Shown here piece after piece: positions 113-63,765 of a stretch of DNA of 64,000 nt. The position numbers and the translations under genes are program-made. The stretch lies in the NCBI GenBank assembly GCA_964557535.1, contig CAZLAD010000001.1, positions 58,482 to 122,481 of the forward strand. The letters run 5' to 3'. The notes beneath the pieces were generated by a model. It saw only the letters and a program-made list of their open reading frames with translations. It searched no databases and was not told the DNA's origin. This stretch comes from an uncultured Candidatus Saccharibacteria bacterium. Its GTDB lineage: Bacteria; Patescibacteriota; Minisyncoccia; Phycocordibacterales; CSBR16-119. Position 1 is the stretch's first letter, and each line of letters opens with the position of its first letter.

Positions 113-691
113 TTAGGGTGCCAAGAAGTACATGACTTCACCCGAAAAGTAATTGAGTGATGTCCGGCTGTGAATGTCTCCGGCGCTAACGGATGTTTGT
201 CGGTGACCATCTTCTTGATTGTATAACCTGAAATTGGCCACCAAGATGTCATTTTCTTCGTTGCAGACAACAAAGTGTGTGGCTCTGCTGATCTCTTCTC
301 GAGACGGAGGTTGTTCTTGGTCGAATACCCATTCTGCCTGTAGTAGGGACATTGCGATACCACGCTCAACCAATGAAAGATTGAAGGTGTCGTGAGTCGC
401 TTTCTGGAGACCCGTTGCTCTTCTCATCAAGGAGCTGAGTGGAGTTGCTTTCTGGGCTTCCATTAGTGAAGTTGATTCGAGGTGTAGTCTTGCGAGACGG
501 CCTCCATTTCGCTTCGGGACGTATTTTCCAAATTGCTCTATGAGCTTTGGACGATTGACCCAGAATCGGGACCTGTCTCGAACACAACTTGTCAAAAAGG
601 TCCTGGGGGTTTGTGGTACGAGGATATCACTAACCTCGTAGCCGAATTCTTCAACGGCGTTCCATTTGGCAGTGGCTAAGGTGGTTGGCAT
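113..691 (-). CDS. Hypothetical protein (192 aa) in a GC-elevated segment
   Basis: Long ORF with coherent codon usage, about 50% GC against a 40% background, and its own terminator hairpin; no recognisable motifs. Confidence 0.4.
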   Translation of the reverse strand: MPTTLATAKWNAVEEFGYEVSDILVPQTPRTFLTSCVRDRSRFWVNRPKLIEQFGKYVPKRNGGRLARLHLESTSLMEAQKATPLSSLMRRATGLQKATHDTFNLSLVERGIAMSLLQAEWVFDQEQPPSREEISRATHFVVCNEENDILVANFRLYNQEDGHRQTSVSAGDIHSRTSLNYFSGEVMYFLAP

Positions 692-746
692 GGTTCATGG
701 TGTTTGTTCTGAAAGACAATACCATTTTGTTGAGTTTTTGTCAATC

Positions 747-2483
747 TTAAAAAAGATTTTCTGGGTTTACGCGGATTTGCCAGTCGGGGGTGAGGGAGGT
801 GAGAATTTCGGAGAGTTTGGGGTCTTGGAATTCTTCGTTCCAAATTTTCTTCGAAAGTTTTAAGATTATCAGACTTTCAAAAGTTCTCCCGCGTTTTATT
901 CGACGAGCTAGAGGATTCCAAATTGAAAGATGAGACACAAGAGGTGAGACATTAGAATCAAAATCATCCTTGTTTGACGTTCGTGAAATTCTCATCAGTG
1001 TCCCAAATGGTGGATAGCCGAATTTTTCACGCATGGATTTTTCAAATTCGTAAAATTCTTGCAAGTTTCCGTTCGCCAAAGTTTTTATGGCCAAATTTTC
1101 TATGTCGCGAGTTTGCAAAATTGCTTTCGGTGATAAATTTTTTACAGCGAATCCTAGCGAGAGAATTTTTTCGTAAATTTTATAACTTGGAATTGATAAA
1201 AGCGCGTCGAGAGAGATGATGGCGGTAACGTCGAGTGGTTTGTAGAGGTGGGGGATAGCGAGCTCCGTGCCAACCAAAATCGAATTTGGCGTTTCATAAA
1301 ACTTTTGGACGGTTTCGCGAACTTTTTTGTTAGTCTTCGTCACGTCACCATCGATTTGAAAGATTTTTTTCTTTGGAAAAAGTTTCTTCGCTTCGAGGGC
1401 GATAGTATCGGTGCCGATGCCGAGCGTGTCAAAATTCCAACTACCACAATTCCCACACCTGGTCTTTGGATCAAGTGTTGCACCAGTTTGCGGATTTAGA
1501 AGCACTCTTTCTCCCGCACGCTCTCGCAAAACGAGACCGATATCACCATCTTTTACAATTTGCCCACAATCATGACATACGACCGAGCTTCCGAGGCCCT
1601 TGCGCAAAGCAAAGGCAAAAGCTTTGTCGCTCGTCTTAAATTCCTCAAAAACTTTTTTGGAAAAAATAAAACTTTTTTTCTCTCGATTCTCCTTGTCACT
1701 CATATCAATCACACGAATGGAGGTCGGACCTTGGGTTTTGGTGATTTTCAAATTGTTTTCGACAATTGTTTCGAGTGAAAGTGGTGCGCCAATGAATTCT
1801 ATTTTGATTTTTAAATTTTCGGCCAAGGTACGGAAAAAATATCGCAGATCAAAATATGGTCGTTTGAGGCTTCGATACGCCGAAGAATGTTCATCGTGAA
1901 TTATGATTTTGCCCAAATCGTGTCGTGGCGTAAATGCAAATGATGGAGTCATGATGACGACTACGGGTCCAGGATTTTCCAAAATTTCTTGGTAACGAGC
2001 GAGCAATGTCTTTTTTCTCAAACTTCCGTGGATGACGAAAACATCTCTGTCTAAAGTTTCGGCTAGGCGTTCGACGGCACGGACGGTCGGCGCGATATGA
2101 AAAACTGATGAGCCGACCGTCCGTGATACTGGCTTCGGCAGATCTTCATAATGTTCCAAAAATTCTATTGGCAGAAAGTAGTTGACAATTTGTCCTAAAT
2201 TGCCGACAAAAAATCTTTTCGTTTTATCGCAGGCGATAAAAAATTCTTTGTAAAATTTGGTCTTACCTTTGACGCTTTCAATCTTTTTGAAACCAAATAT
2301 TGCTGTTTTGATTTCTTGTTTCAAGTCTTTGGCGTCGCGAACTCCGACGACCAGAGCGTCGTATTTTTTCTTTCTGACTTCGATCTCGACGACATCACCT
2401 ATAGAAATGTCTTTGGCCGAGAAATAGGTTAGAGAGTCTTTTTGGACTTTGGCGGATATTGGGCTGACTTCGACGAGTTTCAT
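747..2483 (-). CDS. priA: Primosomal protein N' (PriA)-like helicase with degenerate ATPase motifs
   Basis: Helicase motif II IIIHDEHSSAY matches DEEH. C-terminal Cys-rich Zn-binding region CHDCGQ...CGNCGS is present. The Walker A position reads VGSSVFHIAP instead of GxGKT, and motif III SAT reads GAP. The N-terminal 3'BD/WH region is short. Confidence 0.7.
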   Translation of the reverse strand: MKLVEVSPISAKVQKDSLTYFSAKDISIGDVVEIEVRKKKYDALVVGVRDAKDLKQEIKTAIFGFKKIESVKGKTKFYKEFFIACDKTKRFFVGNLGQIVNYFLPIEFLEHYEDLPKPVSRTVGSSVFHIAPTVRAVERLAETLDRDVFVIHGSLRKKTLLARYQEILENPGPVVVIMTPSFAFTPRHDLGKIIIHDEHSSAYRSLKRPYFDLRYFFRTLAENLKIKIEFIGAPLSLETIVENNLKITKTQGPTSIRVIDMSDKENREKKSFIFSKKVFEEFKTSDKAFAFALRKGLGSSVVCHDCGQIVKDGDIGLVLRERAGERVLLNPQTGATLDPKTRCGNCGSWNFDTLGIGTDTIALEAKKLFPKKKIFQIDGDVTKTNKKVRETVQKFYETPNSILVGTELAIPHLYKPLDVTAIISLDALLSIPSYKIYEKILSLGFAVKNLSPKAILQTRDIENLAIKTLANGNLQEFYEFEKSMREKFGYPPFGTLMRISRTSNKDDFDSNVSPLVSHLSIWNPLARRIKRGRTFESLIILKLSKKIWNEEFQDPKLSEILTSLTPDWQIRVNPENLF

Positions 2484-2600
2484 CCCGTTAGAGATAGCAA
2501 ACCTTAGTTTGCGTACCTTTGTTATTGTTTTGTAAATAATTTACGACCACGGCGATATTTCCATCAAGATTAATTGTAACCAAGTTATCTCTAACGGGAT
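2482..2600 (-). repeat. Intergenic IR-bounded element E1 (119 nt), reverse orientation, abutting the priA start codon
   Basis: Terminal inverted repeats ATCCCGTTAGAGAT (2482-2495) and ATCTCTAACGGGAT (2587-2600). Read on the minus strand it ends TACGCAAA-hairpin-TTTGCTATCTCTAACGGG followed directly by the priA ATG. Confidence 0.75.
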
Positions 2601-2661
2601 TCATGCCTTCATCATAGCATTTTGGAAATTCGACACGAAAAGGTAAGATAGACACGTAATT

Positions 2662-10290: not shown

Positions 10291-10302
10291 CTCAAATGAA
10301 AA

Positions 10303-10327
10303 ACCCGTCACATGGACGGGTTCTTCT
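10303..10327. terminator. Bidirectional intrinsic terminator between murF (+) and the 10345..10659 gene (-)
   Basis: Stem ACCCGTC/GACGGGT with loop ACATG, followed by TCTTCT on the + strand and an A-run on the other side. Confidence 0.6.
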
Positions 10328-10344
10328 GCGTTGTCATGGGTTGC

Positions 10345-10659
10345 TCAACGTGCGATCTTGCCCTTGAGGGCCCCACTCCACCGACCTTGCTTGTAGGCAA
10401 TGATCACGGTGTCACCAGGCTTGATCACCTCGTAAAGTTCCTTCGAGATGAAGACGCCGATCTCTCCCGCTTCCGTCGTGGCGTAGAAGAGCGCAACGTC
10501 ATCGTAAGTCGGATAGCCATTCAAGGCCAGCCGGAGTCGTCTTGTCCGATTCAGGTGGGTGATCGTGACCTTTTCGTAGCGGCTCTCGACGAACAGAAGT
10601 TCCAGCCAGCTAGGGACAGGAAGCGGGGTGTTTGAAAAAGCGAAGGGGACGTGTGTCAT
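10345..10659 (-). CDS. Hypothetical protein with a C-terminal AbrB/MazE-like (swapped-hairpin) motif, in a GC-rich islet
   Basis: About 55% GC. The C-terminal GEIGVFISKELYEVIKPGDTVII fits the G.v.iPkeiR..lgi..GD.v.i pattern of AbrB/SpoVT/MazE domains. A minus-strand promoter TTGACG-17-TATTTT lies at 10688-10716, so the second Met (MTHVPF, 10659) is the likely start; the ORF track extends to 10716. Confidence 0.45.
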   Translation of the reverse strand: MTHVPFAFSNTPLPVPSWLELLFVESRYEKVTITHLNRTRRLRLALNGYPTYDDVALFYATTEAGEIGVFISKELYEVIKPGDTVIIAYKQGRWSGALKGKIAR

Positions 10660-10687
10660 TGTTGGGGTGCGTTGGTTTCTTAAATAC

Positions 10688-10716
10688 AAAATATCAGAAG
10701 GATTACAAAACGTCAA
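10688..10716 (-). promoter_or_regulatory. Sigma70-like promoter for the 10345..10659 gene
   Basis: On the minus strand: TTGACG, a 17-nt spacer, then TATTTT, about 30 nt upstream of the ATG. Confidence 0.45.
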
Positions 10717-12638: not shown

Positions 12639-12666
12639 TTGACAAGAATTTTGATTCGTGTATAAT
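12639..12666 (+). promoter_or_regulatory. Near-consensus sigma70 promoter (TTGACA-16-TATAAT)
   Basis: TTGACA at 12639-12644 and TATAAT at 12661-12666. An AAAGAGG RBS-like motif lies 10 nt upstream of the ATG at 12724. Confidence 0.7.
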
Positions 12667-12723
12667 ACCCCACGAACCAAAGCTCTTGTGGCAATATCGC
12701 CACATACAAAAGAGGTTCGCAAA

Positions 12724-13215
12724 ATGCCCCAATTCCTCAAGCGACCGTGGCACGTCCTCGGTCTGGTGGCCTTGTTGGCCATCGGTTATACGATCCCACT
12801 GCAGATGAAGGCCGCCAAGTTCGACAGCTACACCGCCAGCGCGCTGACCGTTCCGGATGATCCGGCGCTCGTGACCCACGACCGGTTGGCCGTGAGCTAC
12901 GAGAACCATTTCGCCAATTGGACCCTGATCGACGGCCGCGGCACCAGCACGGTGAGCGTGACCACGGATGACCCGTGGAGCGTGAGCACCAGCGAAAGCC
13001 CGCATTTCGAAGGATATCAGCATTACATCATCGAGAACTTCAAGCACGACGTGAACTTCAGCATTTCGGATGTGAACGTGAGCGCCCAGGTGGCCGGTGG
13101 CCTGCTGGTGCCCATCGTGGGCCCGGCGGACAGCGATCATCAGCGATGGAGCAGTACGGCCCGCGATTACCGTTTGGCAGTGCGCGTGGTGAACCTGCGA
13201 ACGTGTCGGTGCTAG
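12724..13215 (+). CDS. Secreted or exported hypothetical protein (about 164 aa) in a 60% GC cassette
   Basis: N-terminal hydrophobic signal/TM (WHVLGLVALLAIGYTIPLQ). GC3-rich, E. coli-like codon usage (ctg, ggc, agc, acc, ccg), which is foreign to the host. It has its own promoter upstream and a terminator downstream. The antisense ORF 12586..13221 is judged an artefact. Confidence 0.55.
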   Translation: MPQFLKRPWHVLGLVALLAIGYTIPLQMKAAKFDSYTASALTVPDDPALVTHDRLAVSYENHFANWTLIDGRGTSTVSVTTDDPWSVSTSESPHFEGYQHYIIENFKHDVNFSISDVNVSAQVAGGLLVPIVGPADSDHQRWSSTARDYRLAVRVVNLRTCRC

Positions 13216-13285
13216 AAGCACGAGCTTCCTAGCACCTTCACTCTTTCCGCCCGCACGGGAACCCCCGAGCGAGTAGGAAACCCCG

Positions 13286-13319
13286 AACCCCGGCCCGTAA
13301 GCCGGGGTTCTTCTTTTTT
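13286..13319 (+). terminator. Rho-independent terminator of the GC-rich cassette
   Basis: Stem AACCCCGGC/GCCGGGGTT with loop CCGTAA, followed by TCTTCTTTTTTA. Confidence 0.8.
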
Positions 13320-18527: not shown

Positions 18528-19072
18528 TGAACAAAGAAGATTTAATTTTTGTAGACATTGAAACAACCGGTTTTGATCCGGAGAAACACGAGATCATTGA
18601 GCTCGCGTACATCCTCGTTCGTCAGAAAGGTGGAGAAGGCAAAGAGTTTGAAATAATCGAAGAGAGAGAATTCCGTATAAAGCCAGAACATATTGAAACC
18701 GCCGAACCCCAAGCCTTGAAAGTAAATGGATATGACGAAGGTCAGTGGCTTTTTGCGAACAGCTTGGCTGAAGTCATGAAAGTTTTTGCTGAGAAGTCAA
18801 AGGGTGCGGTGTTTTTGTCTCACAATGTAACGTTTGATTATTCATTTATTGAAAGAGCTTTTACAAAAACTGGTATCAAAAATGAAATGTTCTATGCCAA
18901 AATGGATACTATTTCCATCGCCTACGCCAAACTTCATGCCAATAAACACATTGAGCGATTCGCTCTCCAAAAGCTGTGTGAATTTTTCGGTATCGAAAAC
19001 ACTCGGGCACATTCCGCTCTCGCTGACACTCGCGCTTTGTTCGAAATCTACAAAAAATTGATGCAATTGTAA
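18527..19072 (+). CDS. DEDDh 3'-5' exonuclease (DnaQ/epsilon-like)
   Basis: Exo I IFVDIETTGFD, Exo II FLSHNVTFDYSFI, Exo III HSALADTRALFEIY. Confidence 0.8.
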   Translation: MNKEDLIFVDIETTGFDPEKHEIIELAYILVRQKGGEGKEFEIIEEREFRIKPEHIETAEPQALKVNGYDEGQWLFANSLAEVMKVFAEKSKGAVFLSHNVTFDYSFIERAFTKTGIKNEMFYAKMDTISIAYAKLHANKHIERFALQKLCEFFGIENTRAHSALADTRALFEIYKKLMQL

Positions 19073-19116
19073 TTCGCCAAAAATCTGTTAGTATTGTCGG
19101 CAAAACCACCACCGCC

Positions 19117-19788
19117 ATGACCAGCGAAAGCTACGAGAAACTCTGCGTGCTCTTGCTGAAAGAGAGACGCGCCCTCGAAGAATCTTTGGGCCGATCGATG
19201 GGACGTTTCGGTCTCATTATGGACGAGCTCGAGGTTACGTTCGTTACCTGGAACTGGATAAGAATTTCTTTCACGGCTAGCATCGTGGGTAAGGGTTCCA
19301 GTAAGCTCTCTTTCATGTTCGTGCCTTCTCCAGCCATGAAAAGTAAGGCGGTCGTTCGTACGCAAGTTGGATCACCCCACTTCGTGATGGGCGCTGACTG
19401 TGAACCGAAGGACCTCTTACTTGCCATCCGTCGCGATGTGTCGTACTCCTACGTAGGTTATCGTGCCGAACGTCTGGCTGTCCGATACTTCGAGAAGCTT
19501 GCCAAGACCTATCCACACATTCTGTCTGTGCGATTGGCTACGCTAGAAGAAGACGCCAAGCGTATGGACGTGATCGTTCGTGCGCGATTCCCGGGATTTC
19601 CAGAGACCGATGTGCCAATACAGATCAAATCAAGAGAGAGGGAACAGAAATACCATCGTGCCGACAAAGAGAAGGCGGGAGTTCCTTCAATTCTTATGCC
19701 CAGGAAGGTCTCGTTTGATCGACTCTGTCCGGGGATGAAAGGAATTCTGCGAGCCTTTGTTTGCAAGGGGCAGGCAATGCACATCTGA
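19117..19788 (+). CDS. Hypothetical protein (223 aa) in a GC-elevated islet
   Basis: About 52% GC. Coherent ORF with a downstream terminator. No recognisable motifs. Confidence 0.45.
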   Translation: MTSESYEKLCVLLLKERRALEESLGRSMGRFGLIMDELEVTFVTWNWIRISFTASIVGKGSSKLSFMFVPSPAMKSKAVVRTQVGSPHFVMGADCEPKDLLLAIRRDVSYSYVGYRAERLAVRYFEKLAKTYPHILSVRLATLEEDAKRMDVIVRARFPGFPETDVPIQIKSREREQKYHRADKEKAGVPSILMPRKVSFDRLCPGMKGILRAFVCKGQAMHI

Positions 19789-19800
19789 GCTGTAGCAACG

Positions 19801-19840
19801 GCTCACCAATGACCTTGGTGAGCTTTGCTTTTTATTGTTT
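19801..19840 (+). terminator. Rho-independent terminator
   Basis: Stem GCTCACCAA/TTGGTGAGC with loop TGACC, followed by TTTGCTTTTTATTGTTT. Confidence 0.75.
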
Positions 19841-20910: not shown

Positions 20911-20970
20911 TTGACTCTTAAAATTACACGTGGTATAAGTTGGTAAACATAACCCCTAAACCCCGAAGTC

Positions 20971-21360
20971 ATGAAAGAATATCTGGATCGGCTTGAGGGT
21001 ATAGACTTGCCCCTCGCCATCAAGGAAAATGACCTGATTCCGCAACTCGTTGATATCGGTATTGAAGCCAGGCGTATAGTGCTGGCTTGTGCTGATCGTC
21101 ACTTTTACTATAAAAGCGACGGCGGACACTTTCTTCCGGCCATTACTCATCTGAAGCCGGTTTACAATGGAAGCGGTAATCTCTCCGCGATCTTACGCCG
21201 AGACTATCCGCCATCATACGATGATGCTGTCGCGAGTTTAGAAGACATACTGAGCGACGGAGTTGGTAAGAAGGTTTACGTCAGAGTTGACCTGAGTGTT
21301 TCTGGCAGAAGCGTCGCCGTGCAGGTGTACGTTTATGTCGGCGTATGGGCCAAGAAGTAG
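20971..21360 (+). CDS. Hypothetical protein (129 aa)
   Basis: Coherent ORF with slightly elevated GC and no motifs. Its 3' end lies upstream of the alaS promoter. Confidence 0.4.
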   Translation: MKEYLDRLEGIDLPLAIKENDLIPQLVDIGIEARRIVLACADRHFYYKSDGGHFLPAITHLKPVYNGSGNLSAILRRDYPPSYDDAVASLEDILSDGVGKKVYVRVDLSVSGRSVAVQVYVYVGVWAKK

Positions 21361-30180: not shown

Positions 30181-30209
30181 TTGACAAATAACAGATAATA
30201 TGCTATTTT
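30181..30209 (+). promoter_or_regulatory. Promoter, copy 1 of the TTGACAAATAA-N5-AATATGCTA module
   Basis: TTGACA at 30181-86, a 17-nt spacer, and an extended -10 TGcTATTTT. A near-identical 25-nt motif occurs at 43084-43112. Confidence 0.55.
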
Positions 30210-30269
30210 ATATTTGAGTAACTACGTACAAACCGCCGATGGTAAAACATTGGCTTCAAACTTAAAAAC

Positions 30270-30722: not shown

Positions 30723-30738
30723 GCTACAAAGTGCAGCA

Positions 30739-30768
30739 GGCCCCGCAAGTCGGGGCCTTTTGCTTTTA
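30739..30768. terminator. Bidirectional intrinsic terminator
   Basis: Stem GGCCCCG/CGGGGCC with loop CAAGT, then TTTTGCTTTT. It sits between convergent genes. Confidence 0.75.
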
Positions 30769-33835: not shown

Positions 33836-33837
33836 TT

Positions 33838-34488: not shown

Positions 34489-34489
34489 A

Positions 34490-34942
34490 ATGTCAAAAGA
34501 TCACAGAGATAAAATTATTGAGATGACTTCTGGGTTAGATGTTAAACATTCAGTTCATGAACCAGTCGGAAAGAGTAAGGAAGCTTCAGAGCTTCGTGGT
34601 GTTCCACTTTCTTCGGGAGCGAAAGCTATCCTTATCCAAGGCAAGAAAACAGACAAAAGATATTTGTTTGTCGTACCGGCCCATAAAAGATTAGACTCAA
34701 AAAGTGTCCAAAATACGATCGGAGAAAAGTTTTCGTTTGTCTCGGATGTTGAAAAGGAGTTTGATTGCGTTCCGGGATCAGTATCGCCGTTTGGTAGTGT
34801 CTTGGGTCTTCAAACGTATGCCGATGAGGGACTTGAAGATGTGCTAAACTTTAACATCGGTCTTCTGACAGAATCTCTACAAATGAAGAAAGAAGATTAT
34901 TTGAAATTAGAAAACCCGATTCTTGGAAATTTCACTGAATAA
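34490..34942 (+). CDS. YbaK/ProX-family aminoacyl-tRNA trans-editing deacylase-like protein
   Basis: [11 protein letters not shown]...[16 protein letters not shown]...[22 protein letters not shown] fits the YbaK/EbsC fold signature. Translationally coupled between the membrane-protein ORF and dnaJ. Confidence 0.6.
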
Positions 34943-34943
34943 A

Positions 34944-36500: not shown

Positions 36501-36569
36501 GGTAAAGGTAAAATCGAAATTCCAGAAAGTCTTTCAAGAGAGCAGAAGAAGTTGGTGAAGGAGGTATAA
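36501..36569 (+). pseudogene. Displaced 3'-terminal fragment of a dnaJ gene
   Basis: Translates to [22 protein letters not shown]. There are 12 identities in 17 residues with the current DnaJ C-terminus [17 protein letters not shown], many synonymous nucleotide differences, and no upstream ORF. Confidence 0.5.
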
Positions 36570-36596
36570 AAGCGAGACCTCTAAGATTTAATTAAT

Positions 36597-37082
36597 TTAA
36601 TATCCAACACAATCACCCATTGACGCGCCTAATATTGGAATACCCAAAAGACTTGTATTTTTTGTGTAGGTAGAAACCCCTTTATTTTTGTATATCGTAT
36701 GAACAGTTATGTAATTTTCCCCTGTGCCTTCGATGTAGACTATTTTTTCTTCATTTTCGACTAATTTCAAAAGCGGGACATTAGTGATTGTTTTAGTTGC
36801 ATCAATATAGCTTAATTGACCCGTTTCGCTATTTTCTAGATCAGAGAACGTAAAAATTAAAGGATTGGTTTCGGGTTTGTTTAATGAATGAGAAATAAAG
36901 TTGTCAGAATAATTTGCACTTAAGGTTTGGGGGTAAGTACAGGTTATTTGTTGACCAAACGATAGATTTGTGTCCCAGAAGGGTCTCCTTGCTTCACTGT
37001 AATTAATAAAATTATAATGAAAAATTATATATCCAATCAACACTCCAACACTTATAAATCCGATTATTTTTAATATTTTCAT
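36597..37082 (-). CDS. Hypothetical exported or membrane-anchored protein (161 aa), AT-rich
   Basis: N-terminal TM/signal (ILKIIGFISVGVLIGYIIF). About 33% GC. No motifs. Confidence 0.5.
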   Translation of the reverse strand: MKILKIIGFISVGVLIGYIIFHYNFINYSEARRPFWDTNLSFGQQITCTYPQTLSANYSDNFISHSLNKPETNPLIFTFSDLENSETGQLSYIDATKTITNVPLLKLVENEEKIVYIEGTGENYITVHTIYKNKGVSTYTKNTSLLGIPILGASMGDCVGY

Positions 37083-37103
37083 ATAAATTTACTTATAATA
37101 ATT

Positions 37104-38468
37104 TTATATCTTCCTCACCTCAAATTCCTCTCCCAAGTCTTTAATCTCGTAACCAAGAGACTTTATTTTATCGCGAAGCTCGTCTGATTTGTCCCAGTCT
37201 TTGGCGAGGCGGGCGGAGTTGCGTTCACGGGCGAGAGACAGGACTTCATCAGGAATTTCGTCACGGGTCCATGTGTCCATTCCGAGTCCGAGGACCTGGT
37301 CAAAGTCGAGAAGTGTCGCGCGTTTGTCGGCGAGGAGTGTTTCTTTGTCATTTACAAGTTCCCACATGACGGCCAAGGCTTTCGGCGTATTCAAATTGTC
37401 TTCCAAGGCCTCGGTAAATATTTTTTTATAATGCGCGCTCACGGTTCCGATGTCGGTTCCGAGATCGAGAAAATTATTTTTGAGTTTCTTCAGAGCATTT
37501 TGCGAAGCTTCGAGTGACTCCCAAGTGAAGTTTACAAGGCTTCGATAGTTGGCCTGGAGCAAAAAGTAGCGGTAGTCGATCGGACTGAAACCTTTTTCTT
37601 CCAAAGTTTTTAAGTAGACATCATTGCCCAAAGATTTGGAAATTTTTTCATCGTTTACGTTTAGGAAATTGTTGTGAAGCCAGAAGTTTACATATTTTTG
37701 ACCAGTGGCGTTTTCGGACTGGGCGATTTCGTTGTTGTGATGGATGGAGATGTGATCAATCCCGCCGGTGTGGATATCAAAATGCTCGCCCAAATATTTC
37801 ATCGACATACCGGAACATTCGATGTGCCAACCAGGAAAGCCTTTACCCCATGGCGTGTCCCAGCCGAGTTCGGAATTGAATTTCCAAAGCGCAAAGTCAC
37901 GCGGGTTTTTCTTTTCATTGTTTGTCTCCACACGTGCGACATTTTCATCTGAGAGTCCGCCAAGCGCGCCGTATTTGGAATCTTTGGAAGTATCAAAATA
38001 AAGTCCGTCAGAAGTTTTGTAGACGAAACCTTTTTCTTTCAGCTTTTTGATAATCTCAATGTCCTCGGCAATGTGATCAGTCGCGCGAGGGAACTTGTCG
38101 GCGAGAATTATGTTTAGTTTTTGTAAGTCTTCGATATAAGCTTTTTCGTATTTTTCGGCAACTTCTTTCATGGCTTCCACGGTCATTGGCAGACCCTCAC
38201 GTTTCAGGGCCTTGGTCATTTTGTCCTCGCCATCATCGCCGTCCGAAACGAGATGCCCGACGTCGGTTATGTTGATGACGTGTTTTACTTCCAGTCCTTC
38301 GTACCTTAGGGTTCGTTTCAAAATATCGGCGAAAACATACGAACGGAGATTTCCGATGTGGGCATAATTGTAAACGGTCGGTCCGCACGAATACATCTTG
38401 ACCAGACCTTCGGTCCGGGGCTTAAATTCTTCCTCGGTTTTTGAAAGGGTATTGTAAATTTTCAACAT
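37104..38468 (-). CDS. cysS: Cysteinyl-tRNA synthetase
   Basis: CGPTVYNYAHIGNLRSY (HIGH) and KMSKSLGN motifs, with Zn-binding Cys/His positions. Confidence 0.93.
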   Translation of the reverse strand: MLKIYNTLSKTEEEFKPRTEGLVKMYSCGPTVYNYAHIGNLRSYVFADILKRTLRYEGLEVKHVINITDVGHLVSDGDDGEDKMTKALKREGLPMTVEAMKEVAEKYEKAYIEDLQKLNIILADKFPRATDHIAEDIEIIKKLKEKGFVYKTSDGLYFDTSKDSKYGALGGLSDENVARVETNNEKKNPRDFALWKFNSELGWDTPWGKGFPGWHIECSGMSMKYLGEHFDIHTGGIDHISIHHNNEIAQSENATGQKYVNFWLHNNFLNVNDEKISKSLGNDVYLKTLEEKGFSPIDYRYFLLQANYRSLVNFTWESLEASQNALKKLKNNFLDLGTDIGTVSAHYKKIFTEALEDNLNTPKALAVMWELVNDKETLLADKRATLLDFDQVLGLGMDTWTRDEIPDEVLSLARERNSARLAKDWDKSDELRDKIKSLGYEIKDLGEEFEVRKI

Positions 38469-38480: not shown

Positions 38481-38552
38481 TCATCAAAAGTTTTTAAACC
38501 TCGGCGTTGACTAAAGTAAGAATTTAAGATAAAAATAAGCCAAACCCCAGAT

Positions 38553-38951
38553 TTGATCATGACCACCTTCACACAACCAATCCGCTCTGCTGTTACTTCC
38601 ATCTTTCTCTGTCCCGCGGAGCGCCTTCATTGGATCCCCATCATGGACAGGTTGGCCCACGAACAACCGACTTTTCCAAGACACATGCATCGCGTGGCCG
38701 ACAAGGTTCTTGATATGATCCCAGAAAAGGGTCCGTGCATTGTGATCACCGACTCGCTTGTATCGGGTACTATGAAAGACGCTGCAGAATTTGCCCGGCT
38801 TTGCCGTGAGCGAAATGCTTTGTGCAGGGTGATTCTGTACACCGGAGAATCTTACGATCTCAATCCGAAAGACTTCGACTGTCACATCAATGCCTTTGAT
38901 TCAGAAGGCTATGATGAGCTCTTCAAGAAGATCGCGGAGTACATTTCATAA
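38553..38951 (+). CDS. Hypothetical protein (132 aa) in a GC-elevated islet; weak receiver-domain-like pattern
   Basis: About 50% GC. CIVITDSLVSGTM...RVILYTGES loosely resembles a CheY-like D...T fold. A downstream bidirectional terminator is present. The antisense ORF 38511..38885 is judged an artefact. Confidence 0.35.
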   Translation: MIMTTFTQPIRSAVTSIFLCPAERLHWIPIMDRLAHEQPTFPRHMHRVADKVLDMIPEKGPCIVITDSLVSGTMKDAAEFARLCRERNALCRVILYTGESYDLNPKDFDCHINAFDSEGYDELFKKIAEYIS

Positions 38952-38970
38952 GTGAGATCGGACGATAAGA

Positions 38971-39006
38971 AATGGCGGACCGTACCCGGTCCGCCATTCC
39001 GCTTTT
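38971..39006. terminator. Bidirectional terminator between the 38553 ORF (+) and corA (-)
   Basis: 12-bp stem AATGGCGGACCG/CGGTCCGCCATT with loop TACC, then CCGCTTTTC. Confidence 0.75.
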
Positions 39007-40481: not shown

Positions 40482-40520
40482 AGCAAAAATCCGCCAGACA
40501 GGCGGATTTTTGCTTCGTTT
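40482..40520. terminator. Intrinsic terminator after rplU
   Basis: 14-bp stem AGCAAAAATCCGCC/GGCGGATTTTTGCT with loop AGACA, then TTCGTTT. Confidence 0.8.
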
Positions 40521-40575
40521 ACAAAATTTGGTAAATATGGTACTTTGATTGATAAAGAACCAAACACGACCAGCC

Positions 40576-40932
40576 ATGAACACCAAGCTTTTCGGCATTT
40601 TCTTTTTCCTCGTCCTGTGTACAATCTCTCCAGCACGGGGTCAGACCTACATCGAGCCCAAGATGCCCATCGATAGCCTCGATATCGCCCTCGACAAGGA
40701 CGGGTGTATGAGCATCATTGTTGAATATGAAAGTGACATCCTGTGTTTCTTCACGGAAGACGGCCAACAATACAACCCAAGTGGTTATGTTGGGTTTCGT
40801 CCGGGGACGAAGATGCGCGATGTTTCGTTCTGCAACAACTCGGCGTTCATATATGATCCCGCGAGCAAGACATTGTCCTTGGGTGGACGTGTGATCAAGC
40901 AGTGGGCGTATCGGGCACGAGGCAGGCGTTAG
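40576..40932 (+). CDS. Small secreted hypothetical protein (about 118 aa, 4 Cys) in a GC-elevated islet
   Basis: Signal peptide MNTKLFGIFFFLVLCTISPARGQ. About 50% GC. Flanked by strong terminators on both sides. Confidence 0.5.
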   Translation: MNTKLFGIFFFLVLCTISPARGQTYIEPKMPIDSLDIALDKDGCMSIIVEYESDILCFFTEDGQQYNPSGYVGFRPGTKMRDVSFCNNSAFIYDPASKTLSLGGRVIKQWAYRARGRR

Positions 40933-40952
40933 CGATCGATCATGGTCATTTG

Positions 40953-40988
40953 AAGGGCCCCGGATTCCGGGGCCCTTCTTGTTTATTT
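40953..40988. terminator. Bidirectional terminator between the secreted ORF (+) and recR (-)
   Basis: 11-bp stem AAGGGCCCCGG/CCGGGGCCCTT with loop ATT, then CTTGTTTATTT. Confidence 0.8.
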
Positions 40989-44609: not shown

Positions 44610-44628
44610 ATTTATATAAAAACGAATG

Positions 44629-44652
44629 AAGGCGGACCATGTGGTCCGCCTT
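44629..44652. terminator. Bidirectional hairpin terminator
   Basis: AAGGCGGACCA-TG-TGGTCCGCCTT perfect palindrome, between the small ORF (+) and the 44681 gene (-). Confidence 0.65.
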
Positions 44653-44680
44653 CGCGTTTCGCTCTATGAGCGAGGTTGTT

Positions 44681-45373
44681 CTATGAACCTGCCGGCCGAA
44701 TACCGTTGTTCACGAAGCCGCTTCCGTTGCCCATCTGTACTTCGACTCGTGTTCCTTTCGGAACAGAGAAGAGATACTGGTCATTTCCAGCGATTGTCCC
44801 CGTGGGGACGGCCGTCGGGGCAGGTGCTGAAGCCTGTTGTGTCGGCGGGGGCTGATGGCTTGTCGCTGGCGATGTGCTGGTCTGCCAGAAACGATTCCAT
44901 GCGTCACGTAACACTCCGAGCAATGCCAATGCCAGGGCCAACAGAAAAAGGCCGACCAAGATGGCGAGAACAGGCGGCACCCAATCGAAGTGTTTACCCC
45001 AGTTGATACCGGAGTATTTCGTTCGAGCGTTACAGCCGTCGGCTGCCATCTTGGCATCCAACGGCTTGCCTTGGACCACGAAGGTCGTATCCACGTGTTG
45101 CGACACGCAGATATCCTTTTCGTAGGCCGTGCCGGAGCACCACCTGCGGGTTTCCTTGCTGGGCACCGCTTTCTCGTAGGAGAGATGCACGGTGTCTCCG
45201 CGCAGGTGCAGGCCCTCGAAGTTCTCCTTGGTGAAGGGCGAGGGATTGTTGCAGGCGCTCGCGAAGAGCAGGATGATGCCCAAAAGGGCGATCACTGGGA
45301 GCTTCCAGGTCGGTTTCAGGTTGTTCATGATCATTGGGAATGTGCCGGTCAGGGCGGTTTGGTTTATAAGCAT
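44681..45373 (-). CDS. Putative lipoprotein or membrane protein with a Pro/Thr/Gln-rich linker, in a 57% GC island
   Basis: Signal plus lipobox-like ...LLFASAC. A second TM (VLAILVGLFLLALALALLGVL) and a low-complexity PATSHQPPPTQQASAPAPTAVPT segment. Foreign codon usage. The start is probably at an internal Met (45334 or 45328). Antisense ORFs are artefacts. Confidence 0.5.
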   Translation of the reverse strand: MLINQTALTGTFPMIMNNLKPTWKLPVIALLGIILLFASACNNPSPFTKENFEGLHLRGDTVHLSYEKAVPSKETRRWCSGTAYEKDICVSQHVDTTFVVQGKPLDAKMAADGCNARTKYSGINWGKHFDWVPPVLAILVGLFLLALALALLGVLRDAWNRFWQTSTSPATSHQPPPTQQASAPAPTAVPTGTIAGNDQYLFSVPKGTRVEVQMGNGSGFVNNGIRPAGS

Positions 45374-45558
45374 ACTAGCATATTAAATTGTTTATGTCAA
45401 TAGTTTAAAAGGGAAGTCAATTTTACCCCTTGCTTTTTTAAAACAAGTGTGTTACTATGCATCCACAATCAAATATTGTTCTGTAGATTTCCGAAAACGT
45501 TAATTATTTCGATGTTCTAGAGAGCTTTCGAGATTAATTAATATTTTAGGAATTTTCT

Positions 45559-48267: not shown

Positions 48268-48292
48268 AGAGCCCCGGCAATTGCCGGGGCTC
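48268..48292 (-). terminator. Hairpin terminator for the 48323..48946 gene
   Basis: Perfect palindrome GAGCCCCGGCAA/TTGCCGGGGCTC. T-rich on the minus strand after the stem. Confidence 0.6.
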
Positions 48293-48322
48293 AAGTGCTA
48301 CTTCGTTGCCATGAAAAGGATC

Positions 48323-48946
48323 TTACGCTGCCCTCCGTCGTTTCTGTTCGCCACCGTGTAGGGTCCTTAGAGCAGCTTCGGCAATAGTTCCGACACCAAC
48401 CACGCGAATGTTTCTTTCTGTCGCGTAGTCGAGTAGTTCGCGCAGGTCCGTTGGAATCAATCCATCGTAGAGATGGACTTCTTGGATGAATCCGCGTCGC
48501 AACAGGTCTCGAGTCAAAGCTGGGTCTTCCGGATATAGGACCAAGTAAGAAACCATCTTTTTGTGGGAGGTTTCTCGGTTGGCGACCTCGCGTAGTTCTT
48601 CTGGCCCGCGTTTGCCGGAGACCAATAGTACAATCTTGCGACTCCCGTGCGATGGCATGTTCTGGTCGGCGCTGAAGATTGGCCCACCAGGATACAGCTG
48701 GAGATATGTTCGAAAGATCAACGCCTTGTTCTTTTTGGCTCTTTTTAGGGCGTCAACGTCATCCTTTTTTACTCGCCAAAGGCGTACCTCGTGCTGAATG
48801 TCGGTCACGGTGGCCGATTGGAGGAAATCCTCATCGTGACGACCGTCGATCGTCAGAAGTTCTACGATGACCCTGTCGGTATGGGTATCGTTGGTGTAGA
48901 CATACCATGTTGGTGCGTATGTCAACTTGTCCGTGAGCTTTTTCAT
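48323..48946 (-). CDS. Hypothetical protein (207 aa) in a GC-elevated islet
   Basis: About 52% GC. Coherent ORF. No recognised motifs. Confidence 0.45.
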   Translation of the reverse strand: MKKLTDKLTYAPTWYVYTNDTHTDRVIVELLTIDGRHDEDFLQSATVTDIQHEVRLWRVKKDDVDALKRAKKNKALIFRTYLQLYPGGPIFSADQNMPSHGSRKIVLLVSGKRGPEELREVANRETSHKKMVSYLVLYPEDPALTRDLLRRGFIQEVHLYDGLIPTDLRELLDYATERNIRVVGVGTIAEAALRTLHGGEQKRRRAA

Positions 48947-49071
48947 CGTGGCTATGTTGTTGTGTTGTTTACGTGTCTAAAATCACTATAAAAATAATTA
49001 CCTCTTATGTCAATAATTTGTTTAGCACAATATACAAAATTCAATTTCTGTATTAGAATGTAGATCATACA

Positions 49072-54548: not shown

Positions 54549-54613
54549 GTCTATTGACTTTTTTCAAAAAAACAAGATATAAAAAATACGAAAACCAACA
54601 AAGAACCTTCCCA

Positions 54614-55333
54614 ATGAAACTCAATCCCAACTTCGTCTTCGGGGCGGTTCTCGCCCTCGTCTTTACCTGCTTCCTTGCTGGCATGAAGGATAGCACGCTT
54701 CCATTCGTGCCGACACTCATCGTATCCTTCCTGGTGTGCTATCCCTGGAAGATCGGTAAGAATGTCTGGTCCGTCTTTGGCGGATTCAATGATGATGGGA
54801 GTGTCTATTCGCTTTTTGGTGTAGTCCAAATGGCTTCTGGTAGCGCCATTTCCGGTGGAGGAATCAGTCTTTTCCAATATGCTGGCGACAACTCTTTTCA
54901 GGCCATCGGACTCTGTCTCTATCAATATGCCGAAGGCCCAAGCCCCTTAAAAGTACAAGGCCAAGGTGTCGGCATAGCTGTGTGTATGAGGACTCGAGGT
55001 GGCTCTCTAGGACAACTCGTTGGCCTAACTCTATTCATGGAGTGTGAAAACGATAACGCAGTCCAAATTGCAGGCGTTGTCCTGTTTCAGAGAGGCATGC
55101 AGGTCTTTCAGGGTGTTGGTTTGTGCGGTGTGCAAATCTCTACCGAAACAAAGCTTAGTCAGTCGGATGATGGTGAAGCCATACAACGAGCTGGTCTGGT
55201 CCTGTATCAAAAGGCAAATCAGAGAGCTTATCAGGATATTGGCCTAAGGCTGTTCGTCAGTGGCGCCATCAAACGAGGAACATTCCTTACCATCACGATC
55301 TTTGAGAAGGAGAAGGAGGTGGTTCTGGCATAG
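54614..55333 (+). CDS. Membrane-anchored tandem-repeat protein (about nine 16-residue repeats), GC-rich insertion between mraY and ftsW
   Basis: About 54% GC. N-terminal TM (FVFGAVLALVFTCFLAG), then repeats with the core xQxxGLxL[FY]Q (FQAIGLCLYQ, GQLVGLTLFM, VQIAGVVLFQ, FQGVGLCGVQ, IQRAGLVLYQ, YQDIGLRLFV). It has its own terminator (55358-55392). The start is chosen at MKLNPN; the ORF track gives 54554. Confidence 0.5.
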   Translation: MKLNPNFVFGAVLALVFTCFLAGMKDSTLPFVPTLIVSFLVCYPWKIGKNVWSVFGGFNDDGSVYSLFGVVQMASGSAISGGGISLFQYAGDNSFQAIGLCLYQYAEGPSPLKVQGQGVGIAVCMRTRGGSLGQLVGLTLFMECENDNAVQIAGVVLFQRGMQVFQGVGLCGVQISTETKLSQSDDGEAIQRAGLVLYQKANQRAYQDIGLRLFVSGAIKRGTFLTITIFEKEKEVVLA

Positions 55334-55357
55334 AACACCATTGAACATAAGCGTTAC

Positions 55358-55392
55358 GCGCCCCGGAGAATACCGGGGCGCTATCGTTTTTC
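55358..55392 (+). terminator. Rho-independent terminator
   Basis: Stem CGCCCCGG/CCGGGGCG with loop AGAATA, then CTATCGTTTTTC. Confidence 0.8.
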
Positions 55393-56514: not shown

Positions 56515-56521
56515 GATATAA

Positions 56522-60937: not shown

Positions 60938-61056
60938 TCCCGGTAGTGATACCTCGGTTTTGGATGGGATAATTAGTAATCTAACCACGGTCGTGAATTC
61001 TTTACAAAAAACTAACTTCGATACGCAAATTTAATAAATTTGCTATCACTATCGGG
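60938..61056 (+). repeat. IR-bounded element E7 (119 nt) ending at the ATG of the 61057 gene
   Basis: TCCCGGTAGTGATA ... CCACGGTCGTGAATTCTTTACAAAAAACTAACTTCGATACGCAAATTTAATAAATTTGCTATCACTATCGGG followed by ATG. It contains the same CACGGTCGTG motif as the grpE promoter region. Confidence 0.75.
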
Positions 61057-62383: not shown

Positions 62384-62399
62384 AAATAATTTTAATGTT

Positions 62400-62903
62400 A
62401 TGACAACCAAGAAACAAAGCCTCGCCGCAAAAAAGAATATAAAGAAAGCTCAAGCGGTATGGAATGGTATGACCAAGAGACAACATTCTCTAGCCCAGCC
62501 AGAAGGGCGAATGCGTCAAAAACCTGGCGCAACAGGGAAGGGTGAATTTTATAGAATCGAAGTTCGGCCAAAGGGCGAGTTCAAGACTTTTCGCGTTCAG
62601 GACGTCGGAGGCAAAGGCGGACTTGAGCGGCTGGCCGGCAAGAGGACCTCTGGATCATGGGACACTGTTTCGTGGCTGGTATCAAAGAAAGATGCGAAAG
62701 TCGTAGACAAGAAATTGGTCATCACTGGTACAAAAGCCAAATCAGTTTTGAAAAGTTTGCGTGGCCCGATAGTTTGGGTCAAGGGAGATATCTTCAAATC
62801 TCATCCCGTAAAGAATGTTCCCGAGTCCAAAAAACCAACTCCAGCAATGCGTAAGGCTCAAATGTCTAATATCAAAAAAGCCCAGGCAGTCCGACGGAAA
62901 TAA
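62400..62903 (+). CDS. Hypothetical basic protein (167 aa) with matching N- and C-terminal KKAQAV repeats
   Basis: AAKKNIKKAQAVWNG at the N-terminus and KAQMSNIKKAQAVRRK at the C-terminus. Lys/Arg-rich. Confidence 0.45.
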   Translation: MTTKKQSLAAKKNIKKAQAVWNGMTKRQHSLAQPEGRMRQKPGATGKGEFYRIEVRPKGEFKTFRVQDVGGKGGLERLAGKRTSGSWDTVSWLVSKKDAKVVDKKLVITGTKAKSVLKSLRGPIVWVKGDIFKSHPVKNVPESKKPTPAMRKAQMSNIKKAQAVRRK

Positions 62904-63003
62904 AAATTCTCGAGAACTTCGTAATCGGATTTTAAATGAAAAAATGAAAAAGAAGAAGCCCGGCATAACCGGGCTCTCCAAAAGTACGTAAGTGTTGGTC
63001 TTG

Positions 63004-63765
63004 CTAGAATCTTCCTCCAGCGCCACCACCACCAAAGCTTCCGCCTCCGAAACCACCTCCGCCAGAGTAACCACCGGAAGATCCACTACTGTAGCCACCA
63101 CTGTATCCTCCGTAACTTCCGCCGCCGCCTGACTGGTTGCTTACCCAGACTATGAACAAGATTGCGACGACGACAACGATTGCCAGTATCACGATCAACC
63201 ACACCGCCATCCGTGTTGTGGCTTCTTCACGAAGCCTCTTCACTTCAGCGCGCTCCTCTGGCGTCATCAGGATGTTCCTGTTGATTTCCTGGAGTCCTGC
63301 TTGTAGACCTTCGAACCACTTCTCCTCCTTCAAAAAGGGGATCATAGTGTCCTCGATGATTTGCTTGCAAGTCGCATCGGGCAAGTCGTCCTCATGGCCG
63401 TATCCTGTGGCAATGAAAAGATCTCGGTCGCCTTCGCCTTGACCCATGGATAAAAGGATCAGAATTCCGCTGTCGCGGTCTTTGCGGCCGACGCCCCATT
63501 TGTTGCCGATCTCGAATGCCGTGGTTGCAACATCAGCACCGTCAAGATCAGATAGAATGACGATGACGATCTGACTCAACGTGCTATCGCTATATGCGCG
63601 CAGTTGTTGTTCGAGACTCGCCACCTCTTCGGGCGTGAGTACGCCAGCGATGTCGTTCATGAACGTAGCGGGCTCGGGTCGTTCGGGGATGTTGTTGCCC
63701 CGCATGTTCGAAGTTCCAAGCATGCTGAGCATGACAAGGAAGAAAGACAAAAGGCGTGTTTTCAT
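63004..63765 (-). CDS. TPM-domain protein (YgcG/TLP18.3-like) with C-terminal TM and Gly/Ser/Tyr-rich tail
   Basis: Signal peptide. TPM fold signature (IVIVILSDLDGADV...GNKWGVGRKDRDSGILILLSMG...IATGYGHE). TM. GGYSGG repeats. GC about 52%. Confidence 0.75.
   Translation of the reverse strand: MKTRLLSFFLVMLSMLGTSNMRGNNIPERPEPATFMNDIAGVLTPEEVASLEQQLRAYSDSTLSQIVIVILSDLDGADVATTAFEIGNKWGVGRKDRDSGILILLSMGQGEGDRDLFIATGYGHEDDLPDATCKQIIEDTMIPFLKEEKWFEGLQAGLQEINRNILMTPEERAEVKRLREEATTRMAVWLIVILAIVVVVAILFIVWVSNQSGGGGSYGGYSGGYSSGSSGGYSGGGGFGGGSFGGGGAGGRF

Follow-up and report, generated by a model that had tools for sequence, protein, structure and literature searches.

Single-gene cassettes in fixed slots between housekeeping genes as a probable flexible fraction, in part GC-rich, of a Paceibacteria-type chromosome

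Here, we analyse twelve small genes, hereafter islets, scattered among housekeeping genes in a stretch of 64,000 nucleotides (the window; contig CAZLAD010000001.1) from an uncultured bacterium of the candidate phyla radiation (CPR), and we compare them with the closest described systems. Phage morons are, like the islets, single genes with their own promoter and terminator, lying between conserved neighbours, deviant in composition and present or absent among relatives. At the sequence level the islets qualify as such autonomous units, with predicted promoters in 12 of 12 cases, terminators in 11 of 12 and empty junctions in relatives. But morons reside in phages, whereas the backbone of the islets is a housekeeping chromosome and they have no matches in PHROG, INPHARED or IMG/VR. 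Unlike morons, islet slots also carry alternative alleles with a common promoter and leader. The flexible islets and hypervariable regions of streamlined bacteria likewise hold strain-specific genes at conserved positions, with recombination in the flanks and a supposed drive by phages or neighbours. Yet, these are multi-gene islands, whereas the islets are single, dispersed over many slots and GC-richer than the core. Loci under balancing selection (capsule, O-antigen, pherotypes, bacteriocin and immunity genes) resemble the islets in their sharp limits of non-homology and in alleles older than the species; the islets differ in being single small open reading frames (ORFs), at many loci per 64 kb, with a compositional signature and no visible cognate partner gene. 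Integron cassettes, too, are small and mostly unannotated ORFs that move as units, with an imperfect inverted repeat behind each one, but the islets have neither integrase nor attI nor array, they have their own promoters, their hairpins carry T-runs, and they do not qualify as integron cassettes. Classical genomic islands are of atypical composition, which holds for eight islets (z-scores of GC content at third codon positions, GC3, of 2.3-6.0; the other four are not deviant), and of patchy distribution; unlike them, the islets show no mobility hallmarks and no identifiable donor, and their composition persists in divergent homologues. Finally, the islets do not qualify as targets of a diversity-generating retroelement: no pair of variable and template repeats was found, nor any reverse transcriptase among the window proteins scanned, and the alleles are whole ORFs and trans-specific.

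We consider it fairly probable that these genes form the flexible fraction of a Paceibacteria chromosome, i.e. clade-internal single-gene cassettes which are exchanged by recombination and part of which has a lasting GC bias. Single-gene transcription units would occupy fixed slots between housekeeping genes or operons. Between strains and sister species the slots differ in what they hold: a gene is present or missing, an unrelated ORF takes its place, or the homologue at that position is extremely diverged. Exchange would proceed by homologous recombination in the conserved flanks, with multi-kb tracts coming from relatives about 90% identical. The source would be a gene pool internal to the clade, and GC-richness would be a lasting property of part of that pool, not a trace left by genes newly imported from a host of high GC. 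Rapid turnover, old alleles and the presence of some envelope proteins among the products are as would be expected under diversifying selection, in conflict or contact with phages, hosts or competitors. The clade itself can be named from the aspartyl-tRNA synthetase (AspRS) of the window. Its closest matches are metagenome-assembled genomes (MAGs) of Patescibacteria/Paceibacteria (Nomurabacteria-like), the best species representative at 93% identity and the others at 63-81%. By these AspRS neighbours the genome is confirmed as that of a Paceibacteria-type CPR bacterium, in agreement with the CPR lineage proposed in the initial annotation.

As read from the sequence, each islet is a monocistronic unit in which a promoter and a CA-rich leader lacking a Shine-Dalgarno site precede a small ORF, with a GC-stem terminator behind it (Table 1). 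A predicted sigma70-like promoter, e.g. TTGACA-17-TGnTATnnT, lies directly upstream of all twelve. The leaders are 20-60 nt long, C/A-rich and G-poor (A 44%, C 31%, G 11%, T 14%), a Shine-Dalgarno-like motif is missing from 11 of the 12, and leaders of the same CA-rich type are found before GC-rich variable genes of relatives. A short leader motif of the AAACCAAAC type has 104 matches and is too common to be diagnostic; hence only the composition of the leaders is distinctive. Strong GC-rich hairpins number 19 in the window, and 14 of them are no more than 120 nt away from an islet (binomial P=1e-8). A GC-stem terminator, with T-runs as in intrinsic terminators, stands just 3' of the stop codon in eleven islets, so that the earlier claim that most islets have their own terminators holds; only islet 5 has none. 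Where a cassette interrupts an operon, the downstream gene has a new -10 box after the terminator (islet 11 in mraY/ftsW, islet 7 in corA/cysS). Neither repeats nor an attC-like shared sequence were found at the cassette borders.

The upstream regions of other genes are of a different kind. Non-islet genes with an upstream spacer of at least 40 nt have AT-rich sequence there, in some cases with a GGAG-type site. Many core genes lack a Shine-Dalgarno site and show an extended -10 box (TGcTAAAAT or TGcTATACT) just 5-8 nt ahead of the start codon, and this position of the box suggests leaderless transcripts, unlike the leadered islet genes.

Table 1. Predicted islet cassettes and other features of the 64-kb window. 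Promoters are given as -35 / -10 elements; GC3 z-scores are relative to 56 non-islet genes.
Feature	Span (strand)	ORF	Promoter	Leader	Terminator	GC (%)	GC3 z-score (GC3)	Remarks
Islet 1	69..744 (-)	113-691, 192 aa	TTGACA 739-744 / TGgTATTGT 716-721	692-715, CA-rich	69-98, 12-bp perfect stem	48.4	1.2, weak outlier	between PriA-like gene and YbeY
Islet 2	10302..10716 (-)	10345-10659, 104 aa	TTGACG 10711-10716 / TATTTT 10688-10693	10660-10687	10302-10322, common to convergent murF	55.9	4.2 (0.70)	
Islet 3	12639..13311 (+)	12724-13215, 163 aa	TTGACA 12639-12644 / TATAAT 12661-12666	12667-12723	13284-13311	61.4	6.0 (0.82)	N-terminal membrane anchor
Islet 4	19067..19824 (+)	19117-19788, 223 aa	TTGTAA 19067-19072 / TGtTAGTAT 19089-19094	19095-19116	19800-19824	51.6	2.4	
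Islet 5	20911..21360 (+)	20971-21360, 129 aa	TTGACT 20911-20916 / TGgTATAAG 20934-20939	20940-20970	none	49.5	1.7	16-nt overlap with AlaRS start
Islet 6	30181..30759 (+)	30270-30722, 150 aa	TTGACA 30181-30186 / TGcTATTTT 30204-30209	30210-30269, with small hairpin	30737-30759	45.3	at most 1.7	
Islet 7	38507..38998 (+)	38559-38951, 130 aa	TTGACT 38507-38512	to 38558	38971-38998, bidirectional	49.1	2.3	between corA and cysS
Islet 8	40518..40978 (+)	40576-40932, 118 aa	TTTACA 40518-40523 / TGgTACTTT 40541-40546		40952-40978, 12-bp perfect stem	51.3	3.5 (0.65)	signal peptide
Islet 9	44627..45400 (-)	listed as 44681-45373; true start probably 45328-45334	TTGACA 45395-45400 / TAGTAT 45372-45377	AAACCAAAC...	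44627-44654	57.4	4.3 (0.70)	predicted lipoprotein with second transmembrane helix
Islet 10	48268..49013 (-)	48323-48946, 207 aa	TTGACA 49008-49013 / TATAGT 48985-48990	48947-48984, CA-rich	48268-48293	51.8	2.4	
Islet 11	54554..55382 (+)	54614-55333, 239 aa	TTGACT 54554-54559 / TATAAA 54578-54583	54584-54613	55357-55382	49.6	1.6	between mraY and ftsW of dcw cluster
Islet 12	62957..63840 (-)	63004-63765, 253 aa	TTGACA 63835-63840	CA-rich	62957-62975	53.7	2.7	signal peptide, TPM domain, transmembrane helix, Gly-rich tail
AT-rich variable slot	36562..37104 (-)	36597-37082, 161 aa				32		
AT-rich variable slot, dnaK/dnaJ	33826..34943 (+)	33838-34488, 216 aa; 34490-34942				34 (33838-34488)		tRNA_edit domain in 34490-34942
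AT-rich genes without Pfam domain		23177-24358; 33838-34488; 36597-37082				32-34		
AT-rich PaaX_M-domain gene	35886-36455 (+)					33		
Core -10 box, ftsW	55391-55410							
Core -10 box, dnaB	42999-43020							
Core -10 box, trpS	43335-43356							
Core -10 box, mreB	10737-10758							
Core -10 box, cysS	38469-38490							
Housekeeping block 1								PriA-like protein, murA-B-E-D-C-F
Housekeeping block 2								mreB, holB, frr, rseP, sigma-like protein, yceG, exonuclease, mnmA, alaS
Housekeeping block 3								ribosomal-protein/rpoA block, then grpE-dnaK-dnaJ
Housekeeping block 4								cysS, corA, rplU, recR, dnaB, trpS
Housekeeping block 5								DEAD helicase, aspS, scpA/B, D-Ala-D-Ala carboxypeptidase, mraY-ftsW-murG, gltX, M23 peptidase

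The slots were followed in two species-level sisters (loci L003 and L166, with core proteins 75-95% identical to those of the window) and in a closer relative, the ENA strain (assembly ERZ4208449, loci L163, L170 and L173), which is 90-99% identical in mosaic blocks. L003 has neither islet 8 nor islet 11, its L21-RecR spacer being 37 nt long and its mraY-ftsW junction 12 nt, and it lacks islet 9 together with the adjoining helicase. Islet 7 was not detected in L003 or L166 and is absent from the ENA strain; the gap between corA and cysS is 12 nt in both L166 and the ENA strain. This 12-nt spacer is cleanly replaced in the window, with no target-site duplication at the slot, and the neighbourhood differs from the ENA strain in two steps, the CysRS block being 91% identical and CorA 98.6%. 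Islet 10 was not detected in L003 or L166 either, where other ORFs (54-60% GC in L003) occupy the slot upstream of aspS. Several relatives carry directly upstream of aspS a family of Pfam-less proteins of about 220 aa (L013 953-1639, L006 5395-6060, L004 9203-9895, L003 7931-8566), with GC3 of 0.74-0.88; overall GC in these genomes is 35-43%. The family is missing from the window, where islet 10 lies on the opposite strand, and profile comparison found no relationship between islet 10 and this family. Islet 4 is absent from 80 metagenome loci in which its neighbouring genes occur 4-30 times (YceG 26, exonuclease 4, AlaRS 30); the scan around MnmA reached distant relatives only (at most 58% identity) and is informative for absence.

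Other islets persist, to very different degrees. The ENA strain has islets 4, 5, 8, 9, 10, 11 and 12. Its islet 4 is 98.7% identical in amino acids, its islets 5 and 11 are identical, a 207-aa gene is called at the position of islet 10 inside a 96% identical block, and a 253-aa TPM-domain gene at that of islet 12. In L166, islet 9 is represented by an orthologue of 67% identity and islet 8 by a positional homologue of only 33%, and upstream of AlaRS in L164 lies a positional homologue of islet 5 at 31%. The single genes of the initial annotation are thus patchy in distribution, as the absent or replaced islets of L003, L166 and the ENA strain show.

Replacement by other sequence was seen in several slots. 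In the ENA strain, 98.5% identical around islet 2, the segment 10290-10736 is replaced by an unalignable cassette of 46% GC that encodes a different 104-aa protein on the same strand. In its islet 6 slot, the promoter and leader are 98% identical to those of the window until 9 nt before the ATG, where an unrelated 139-aa ORF with a different terminator takes over. In the pair L004 and L006 (93-95% identical), homology of the gene upstream of aspS is lost at the start codon and returns only 5 codons ahead of the stop, while promoter, leader, last codons and terminator are conserved. Three swaps could be resolved at the sequence level; in these, homology stops at or just before the start codon, to resume after the terminator in two cases and, in the other, a few codons ahead of the stop. 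The islet 2, islet 6 and L004/L006 slots thus appear, in the few genomes at hand, to be cases of balanced allele replacement. Slots are not restricted to GC-rich genes. The one at 36597-37082 holds an AT-rich gene in the window and an unrelated 201-aa secreted or membrane ORF of 52% GC (GC3 0.64) in the ENA strain, which shows that one slot can carry either type of cassette. In the dnaK/dnaJ slot of the same strain (L170 4429-4812), a 127-aa Avd-like / 23S_rRNA_IVP protein replaces the two window genes. The 23S_rRNA_IVP / bAvd family includes the accessory protein of diversity-generating retroelements.

The alleles seem to have travelled between species. The islet 6 allele of the window is shared with the distant L164 at 88% amino-acid identity and a synonymous divergence (dS) of 0.49, whereas dS of the flanking rpsI, rpoA and dnaK exceeds 1.3 or is saturated. 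Within the AspRS-upstream family, the L006 allele is nearest to that of L013 and the L004 allele nearest to that of L003, though L004 and L006 are sisters. Alleles that are closer across species than between sisters suggest the exchange of pre-existing alleles. Between window positions 29473-50948 and L170 of the ENA strain, identity is mosaic, with successive blocks of 98, 90, 93, 91, 99 and 96%, and the swapped slots adjoin the low-identity blocks (90-93%). This association suggests multi-kb recombination tracts from a relative diverged by about 10%, and the whole pattern speaks for frequent exchange by homologous recombination among lineages that differ by about 10%. The ratio of non-synonymous to synonymous divergence (dN/dS) is 0.17 for islet 9, where dS is saturated, 0.13 for islet 6 and about 0.5 for islet 8 against its L166 homologue. 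By these estimates islet 9 is under purifying selection and islet 8 nearly neutral, and the islet ORFs so tested are real protein-coding genes.

Base composition was analysed in 68 curated genes, with GC3 z-scores relative to the 56 non-islet genes (mean 0.41, sd 0.067). The window has 42.8% GC, or 41.8% without the 12 intervals listed in the initial annotation, which had put the islets at 50-60% GC in a genome of about 40%. This description is accurate in part: the top ten genes by GC among the 68 all come from the list, but the intervals span 45.3-61.4%, seven reach at least 50% and five do not. Islets 2, 3 and 9, then 8 and 12, are the only strong outliers. In islets 1, 5, 6 and 11, the GC3 z-score is at most 1.7 and GC is matched by MreB and DnaB at 48-49%; the class is thus defined by architecture and variability more than by GC. 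The GC excess is greatest at third codon positions and is also present at the others, with sharp steps at the ends of the islet ORFs. It extends to the proteins, in which FYMINK residues make up 0.25 against 0.32 in other genes and GARP residues 0.26 against 0.22, and codon-usage selection alone does not explain this amino-acid shift. The frames follow the order GC3>GC1>GC2. Antisense ORFs in the islets are, as the initial annotation had it, spurious by-products of high GC3. As a rule, the accessory genes of bacteria have a lower GC content than the core (Bohlin et al. 2017, PMC5303225). Accessory genes that are GC-richer than the core, and persistently so, reverse this sign and are the unusual element of the system.

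A high-GC host as donor, suggested in the initial annotation, found no support among the homologues. For islet 3, a HMMER search at full sensitivity of 1.84 billion representative proteins returned two matches only, the copy of the ENA strain and a homologue of 45-50% amino-acid identity in another CPR genome, L169, where it likewise occupies the HolB/RRF slot. For islet 9, four homologues at 66-71% identity were traced to three contigs that all carry the neighbouring CPR genes of the window, two of them with the gene in the same TrpRS/DEAD-helicase slot. For these two islets no donor or homologue was thus found outside the recipient clade, which would be the expected outcome for a clade-internal pool. 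The islet proteins fall in 90%-identity clusters of 1-4 members, and PHROGs, PADLOC, NCBIfam, PDB sequences, PLSDB plasmids, INPHARED phages and IMG/VR gave no meaningful matches to them. The homologues are GC-rich as well. The L169 homologue of islet 3 has a GC3 of 0.79 next to neighbours at 0.24-0.30, and the islet 9 orthologues keep a GC3 of 0.61-0.72 with dS above 1. In the AspRS-upstream family GC at four-fold sites is 0.78-0.92, against 0.17-0.19 in the adjacent aspS, and these sites are saturated between alleles (identity 0.41 vs 0.36 by chance). GC-richness which is kept in such diverged or saturated homologues does not fit a recent, fading import of the strongest islets. In fact, the initial annotation had itself named equally GC-rich copies in relatives as evidence against acquisition, and this is what islets 3 and 9 show.

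These results bear on the strongest of the rival explanations, i.e. that the islets are recent independent imports from a GC-rich organism, possibly the host of the episymbiont, and are still ameliorating. Horizontal transfer into Patescibacteria is documented (PMC12455944), though 83% of the transfers into Patescibacteria came from other Patescibacteria (PMC12455944), a pattern that fits a clade-internal pool. Import would account for a composition that is atypical at all codon positions and ends sharply with the ORF, and for the third-position usage of the extreme genes, in which A takes only 0.04-0.07 as in a genome of about 60% GC. It would also account for the patchy distribution in relatives, and islet 7 does look like a very recent gain. 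But positional homologues in sisters are equally GC-rich though 45-70% diverged or synonymously saturated, and homologues outside related CPR genomes are lacking even at the sensitivity reached for islet 3. The promoter and leader common to the alternative alleles of a slot are in the clade's own style, which marks them as part of the resident genome and not of an imported fragment. Integrases, tRNAs, direct repeats and target duplications were not found at the islets. Hence, we regard recent import as unlikely, without being negligible.

Somewhat less likely still is GC-biased gene conversion of native genes at slots that act as recombination hot spots, a process that could also be the cause of the GC bias within the cassette-exchange account favoured here. 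It would explain why slots coincide with recombination breakpoints and mosaic identity blocks, why GC-richness persists at saturated synonymous sites and why all codon positions are affected. It should also leave a gradient into the flanking core genes; such a gradient was sought and none was seen, the steps at the ORF ends being sharp and the four-fold GC of the adjacent AspRS gene remaining at 0.17-0.19. Moreover, other hyperdivergent segments of L004/L006 are AT-rich (33-37%), and some slots hold AT-rich cassettes. A GC3 shift from 0.27 to 0.8 is also far larger than the effects known for bacteria.

That the islets are merely the upper tail of ordinary variation in gene GC, picked by eye and forming no class, is improbable in our view, though some points speak for it. 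Since islets were picked on GC, tests of GC on them are circular. Four of them lie inside the range of core genes, and there are AT-rich outliers too. Yet, GC3 z-scores of 4-6 are far outside the sd of the reference genes, and traits on which the islets were not selected track the list, namely lack of a Pfam domain (11 of 12), absence or replacement in relatives, association with hairpins (P=1e-8) and the CA-rich leader (p=3e-6). A non-circular test is also available: genes without Pfam domain (n=18) have a GC of 0.471 against 0.425 for those with a domain (p=0.003), and they are more variable in GC (Levene p=0.001). The initial annotation had overlooked the opposite class, of AT-rich and barely annotated genes at 32-34% GC.

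Targeted hypermutation in place, e.g. by a diversity-generating retroelement or a local mutator, is very improbable. Divergence is indeed confined to the ORF between conserved flanks, third positions of the coding strand are depleted in A, an Avd-like protein occurs in the ENA strain, and islet 3 shows 6 substitutions in 83 nt. But the alleles are trans-specific, which itself argues against mutation in place, and they differ over whole ORFs and not in a C-terminal variable region. No flanking direct repeats of the length needed for a template repeat were found, and reverse transcriptase, integrase and transposase domains are absent from the window proteins scanned.

The substitutions in islet 3 lie at window positions 12996-13078. 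They include a nonsense change at 13033, the ENA strain copy being shortened by a stop codon, and next to no differences are seen in the kilobases around them. The cluster resembles a short patch of recombination, or else a mutational event that hit several sites.

Assembly chimeras or structured RNA genes can be all but set aside: GC-rich patches in AT-rich genomes are often RNA genes and MAGs can be chimeric, but the same islet sequences occur at 100% identity in independent assemblies, codon periodicity is strong, constraint acts at the protein level, and no tRNA gene or Rfam family was found in the window (at gathering or E-value thresholds) or in the GC-rich segments of relatives, on which grounds a structured-RNA identity was rejected.

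Several points weigh against the account of clade-internal cassettes with a lasting GC bias. Promoters, leaders and terminators are sequence predictions. The difference in leader composition, with A+C of 0.75 in islets against 0.50 in non-islet genes whose upstream spacer measures at least 40 nt (p=3e-6), is partly confounded, as many core genes are apparently leaderless. Islets 1, 5, 6 and 11 are no compositional outliers. The sister genomes inform on islets 2-11, and islets 1 and 12 are covered by near-identical strains. The large protein collections were searched with islets 3 and 9, and for the other islets the lack of a donor is less firmly established, being judged from curated libraries, from collections of plasmids and phages and from some 170 related loci. 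Over 118 Paceibacteria loci, variable segments of at least 300 nt are slightly AT-richer than conserved genes (mean -0.01), and about 10% of them exceed +5% GC; hence GC-rich cassettes are a minority. They are commoner in this lineage and its nearest relatives, where numbers are small (4 of 15 segments). A GC-rich reservoir that has escaped sampling would, if genes were imported from it repeatedly, also hold GC3 high. At the same 118 loci, GC3 is over-dispersed on both sides among lineage-specific genes (sd 0.096 vs 0.048), with 8.7% of them above +0.15 and 10.4% below -0.10.

A bolder version of the cassette account, which we put forward tentatively and at low confidence, is that the slots are expression platforms made of a fixed promoter and a CA-rich leader without Shine-Dalgarno site, dispersed among housekeeping genes, into which small ORFs are swapped as units. 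These ORFs would hold a stationary, strong GC bias in codons and amino acids (four-fold GC of 0.8-0.9 beside 0.17-0.19) within AT-rich genomes. If so, an unrecognised force would act on this class of genes. Candidates are a translation regime tuned to codon usage, GC-biased recombination or repair that acts on the cassettes only, or a concealed reservoir of high GC, e.g. an unknown CPR mobile element.

The genomes of CPR bacteria, or Patescibacteria, are tiny, and these data show for one lineage where the variable genes sit and how they may be exchanged: they lie in many single-gene slots among essential genes, with recombination in the conserved flanks formed by promoter, leader and terminator. 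The gene pool is apparently internal to the clade and not derived from the host. The reversed sign of the GC difference makes the forces acting on base composition testable in a simple system, and the contrast between CA-rich leaders without Shine-Dalgarno site and mostly leaderless core genes suggests a separate mode of translation initiation or control. Finally, the cassettes provide a list of candidate proteins for interactions with hosts, phages or competitors.

The initial annotation had described the products as ORFans, many of them secreted or in the membrane. Eleven islets indeed lack any Pfam domain or known family. Islet 12 is the exception: it matches TPM_phosphatase (PF04536) at residues 37-162 with 119.6 bits against a cut-off of 22.1 (E=1e-34), and with its signal peptide and a C-terminal transmembrane segment at 180-215 it has the predicted features of a TPM family protein. 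Two more unannotated genes on the same strand follow it beyond the window. Signal peptides, lipoboxes or transmembrane segments occur in five islets (3, 8, 9, 11 and 12); an automated hydropathy scan flagged four of the twelve, and inspection of the sequences revealed short signal peptides in islets 8 and 12. This is no enrichment, since the same scan finds a hydrophobic segment in 41% (23/56) of the other genes. Islet 1 has no match in Pfam, NCBIfam, PHROG or PADLOC, and islet 4 has only a weak MjaI-nuclease-like match in Pfam (E=0.046). AlphaFold confidence (pLDDT) was 50 for islet 9 from a five-sequence alignment and 46 for islet 4 from the single sequence, a model that is unusable. The homologues of islet 9 conserve the Cys-lipobox, the transmembrane helix and a C-terminal motif. 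The islet 11 protein (54614-55333) has about seven degenerate copies of Q-x-[IV]-G-L-x-L-[FY]-Q after its N-terminal membrane segment, and a weak relative (24% identity, E=0.001) lies upstream of mnmA in L118.

Some minor observations concern the surroundings of the islets. Between rpsI and the islet 6 promoter lies a GC-rich non-coding stretch (29990-30172, +) with a predicted folding energy of -71 kcal/mol (z=-4.1 vs shuffled sequence) and a terminal hairpin at 30136-30164. This stretch, which is absent from L164 and has no Rfam match, may encode a small RNA. Two paralogues with a PaaX-central (Cas2-like) domain, encoded at 30774-31298 (-) and 35886-36455 (+), flank grpE-dnaK-dnaJ, with GC of 46% and 33% respectively. 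The AspRS of L166 (1672-3003) is only 37% identical to that of the window (49152-50573) while the adjoining genes are 83-90% identical; it has apparently been displaced by a distant version. Lastly, an intergenic repeat of about 130 nt occurs at 2473-2604, 52409-52558 and 56510-56665, with partial copies at 51763-51788, 44440-44486 and 61037-61083. In this repeat the 14-nt ATCCCGTTAGAGAT lies about 110 nt upstream of its own reverse complement, ATCTCTAACGGGAT, which abuts the ATG of the downstream gene. The genes behind it are the PriA-like gene, the D-Ala-D-Ala carboxypeptidase gene, murG, scpB, a 109-aa ORF and a small transmembrane ORF, for which the repeat could serve as a common operator or promoter, or could fold into a leader structure in which the start codon is hidden.

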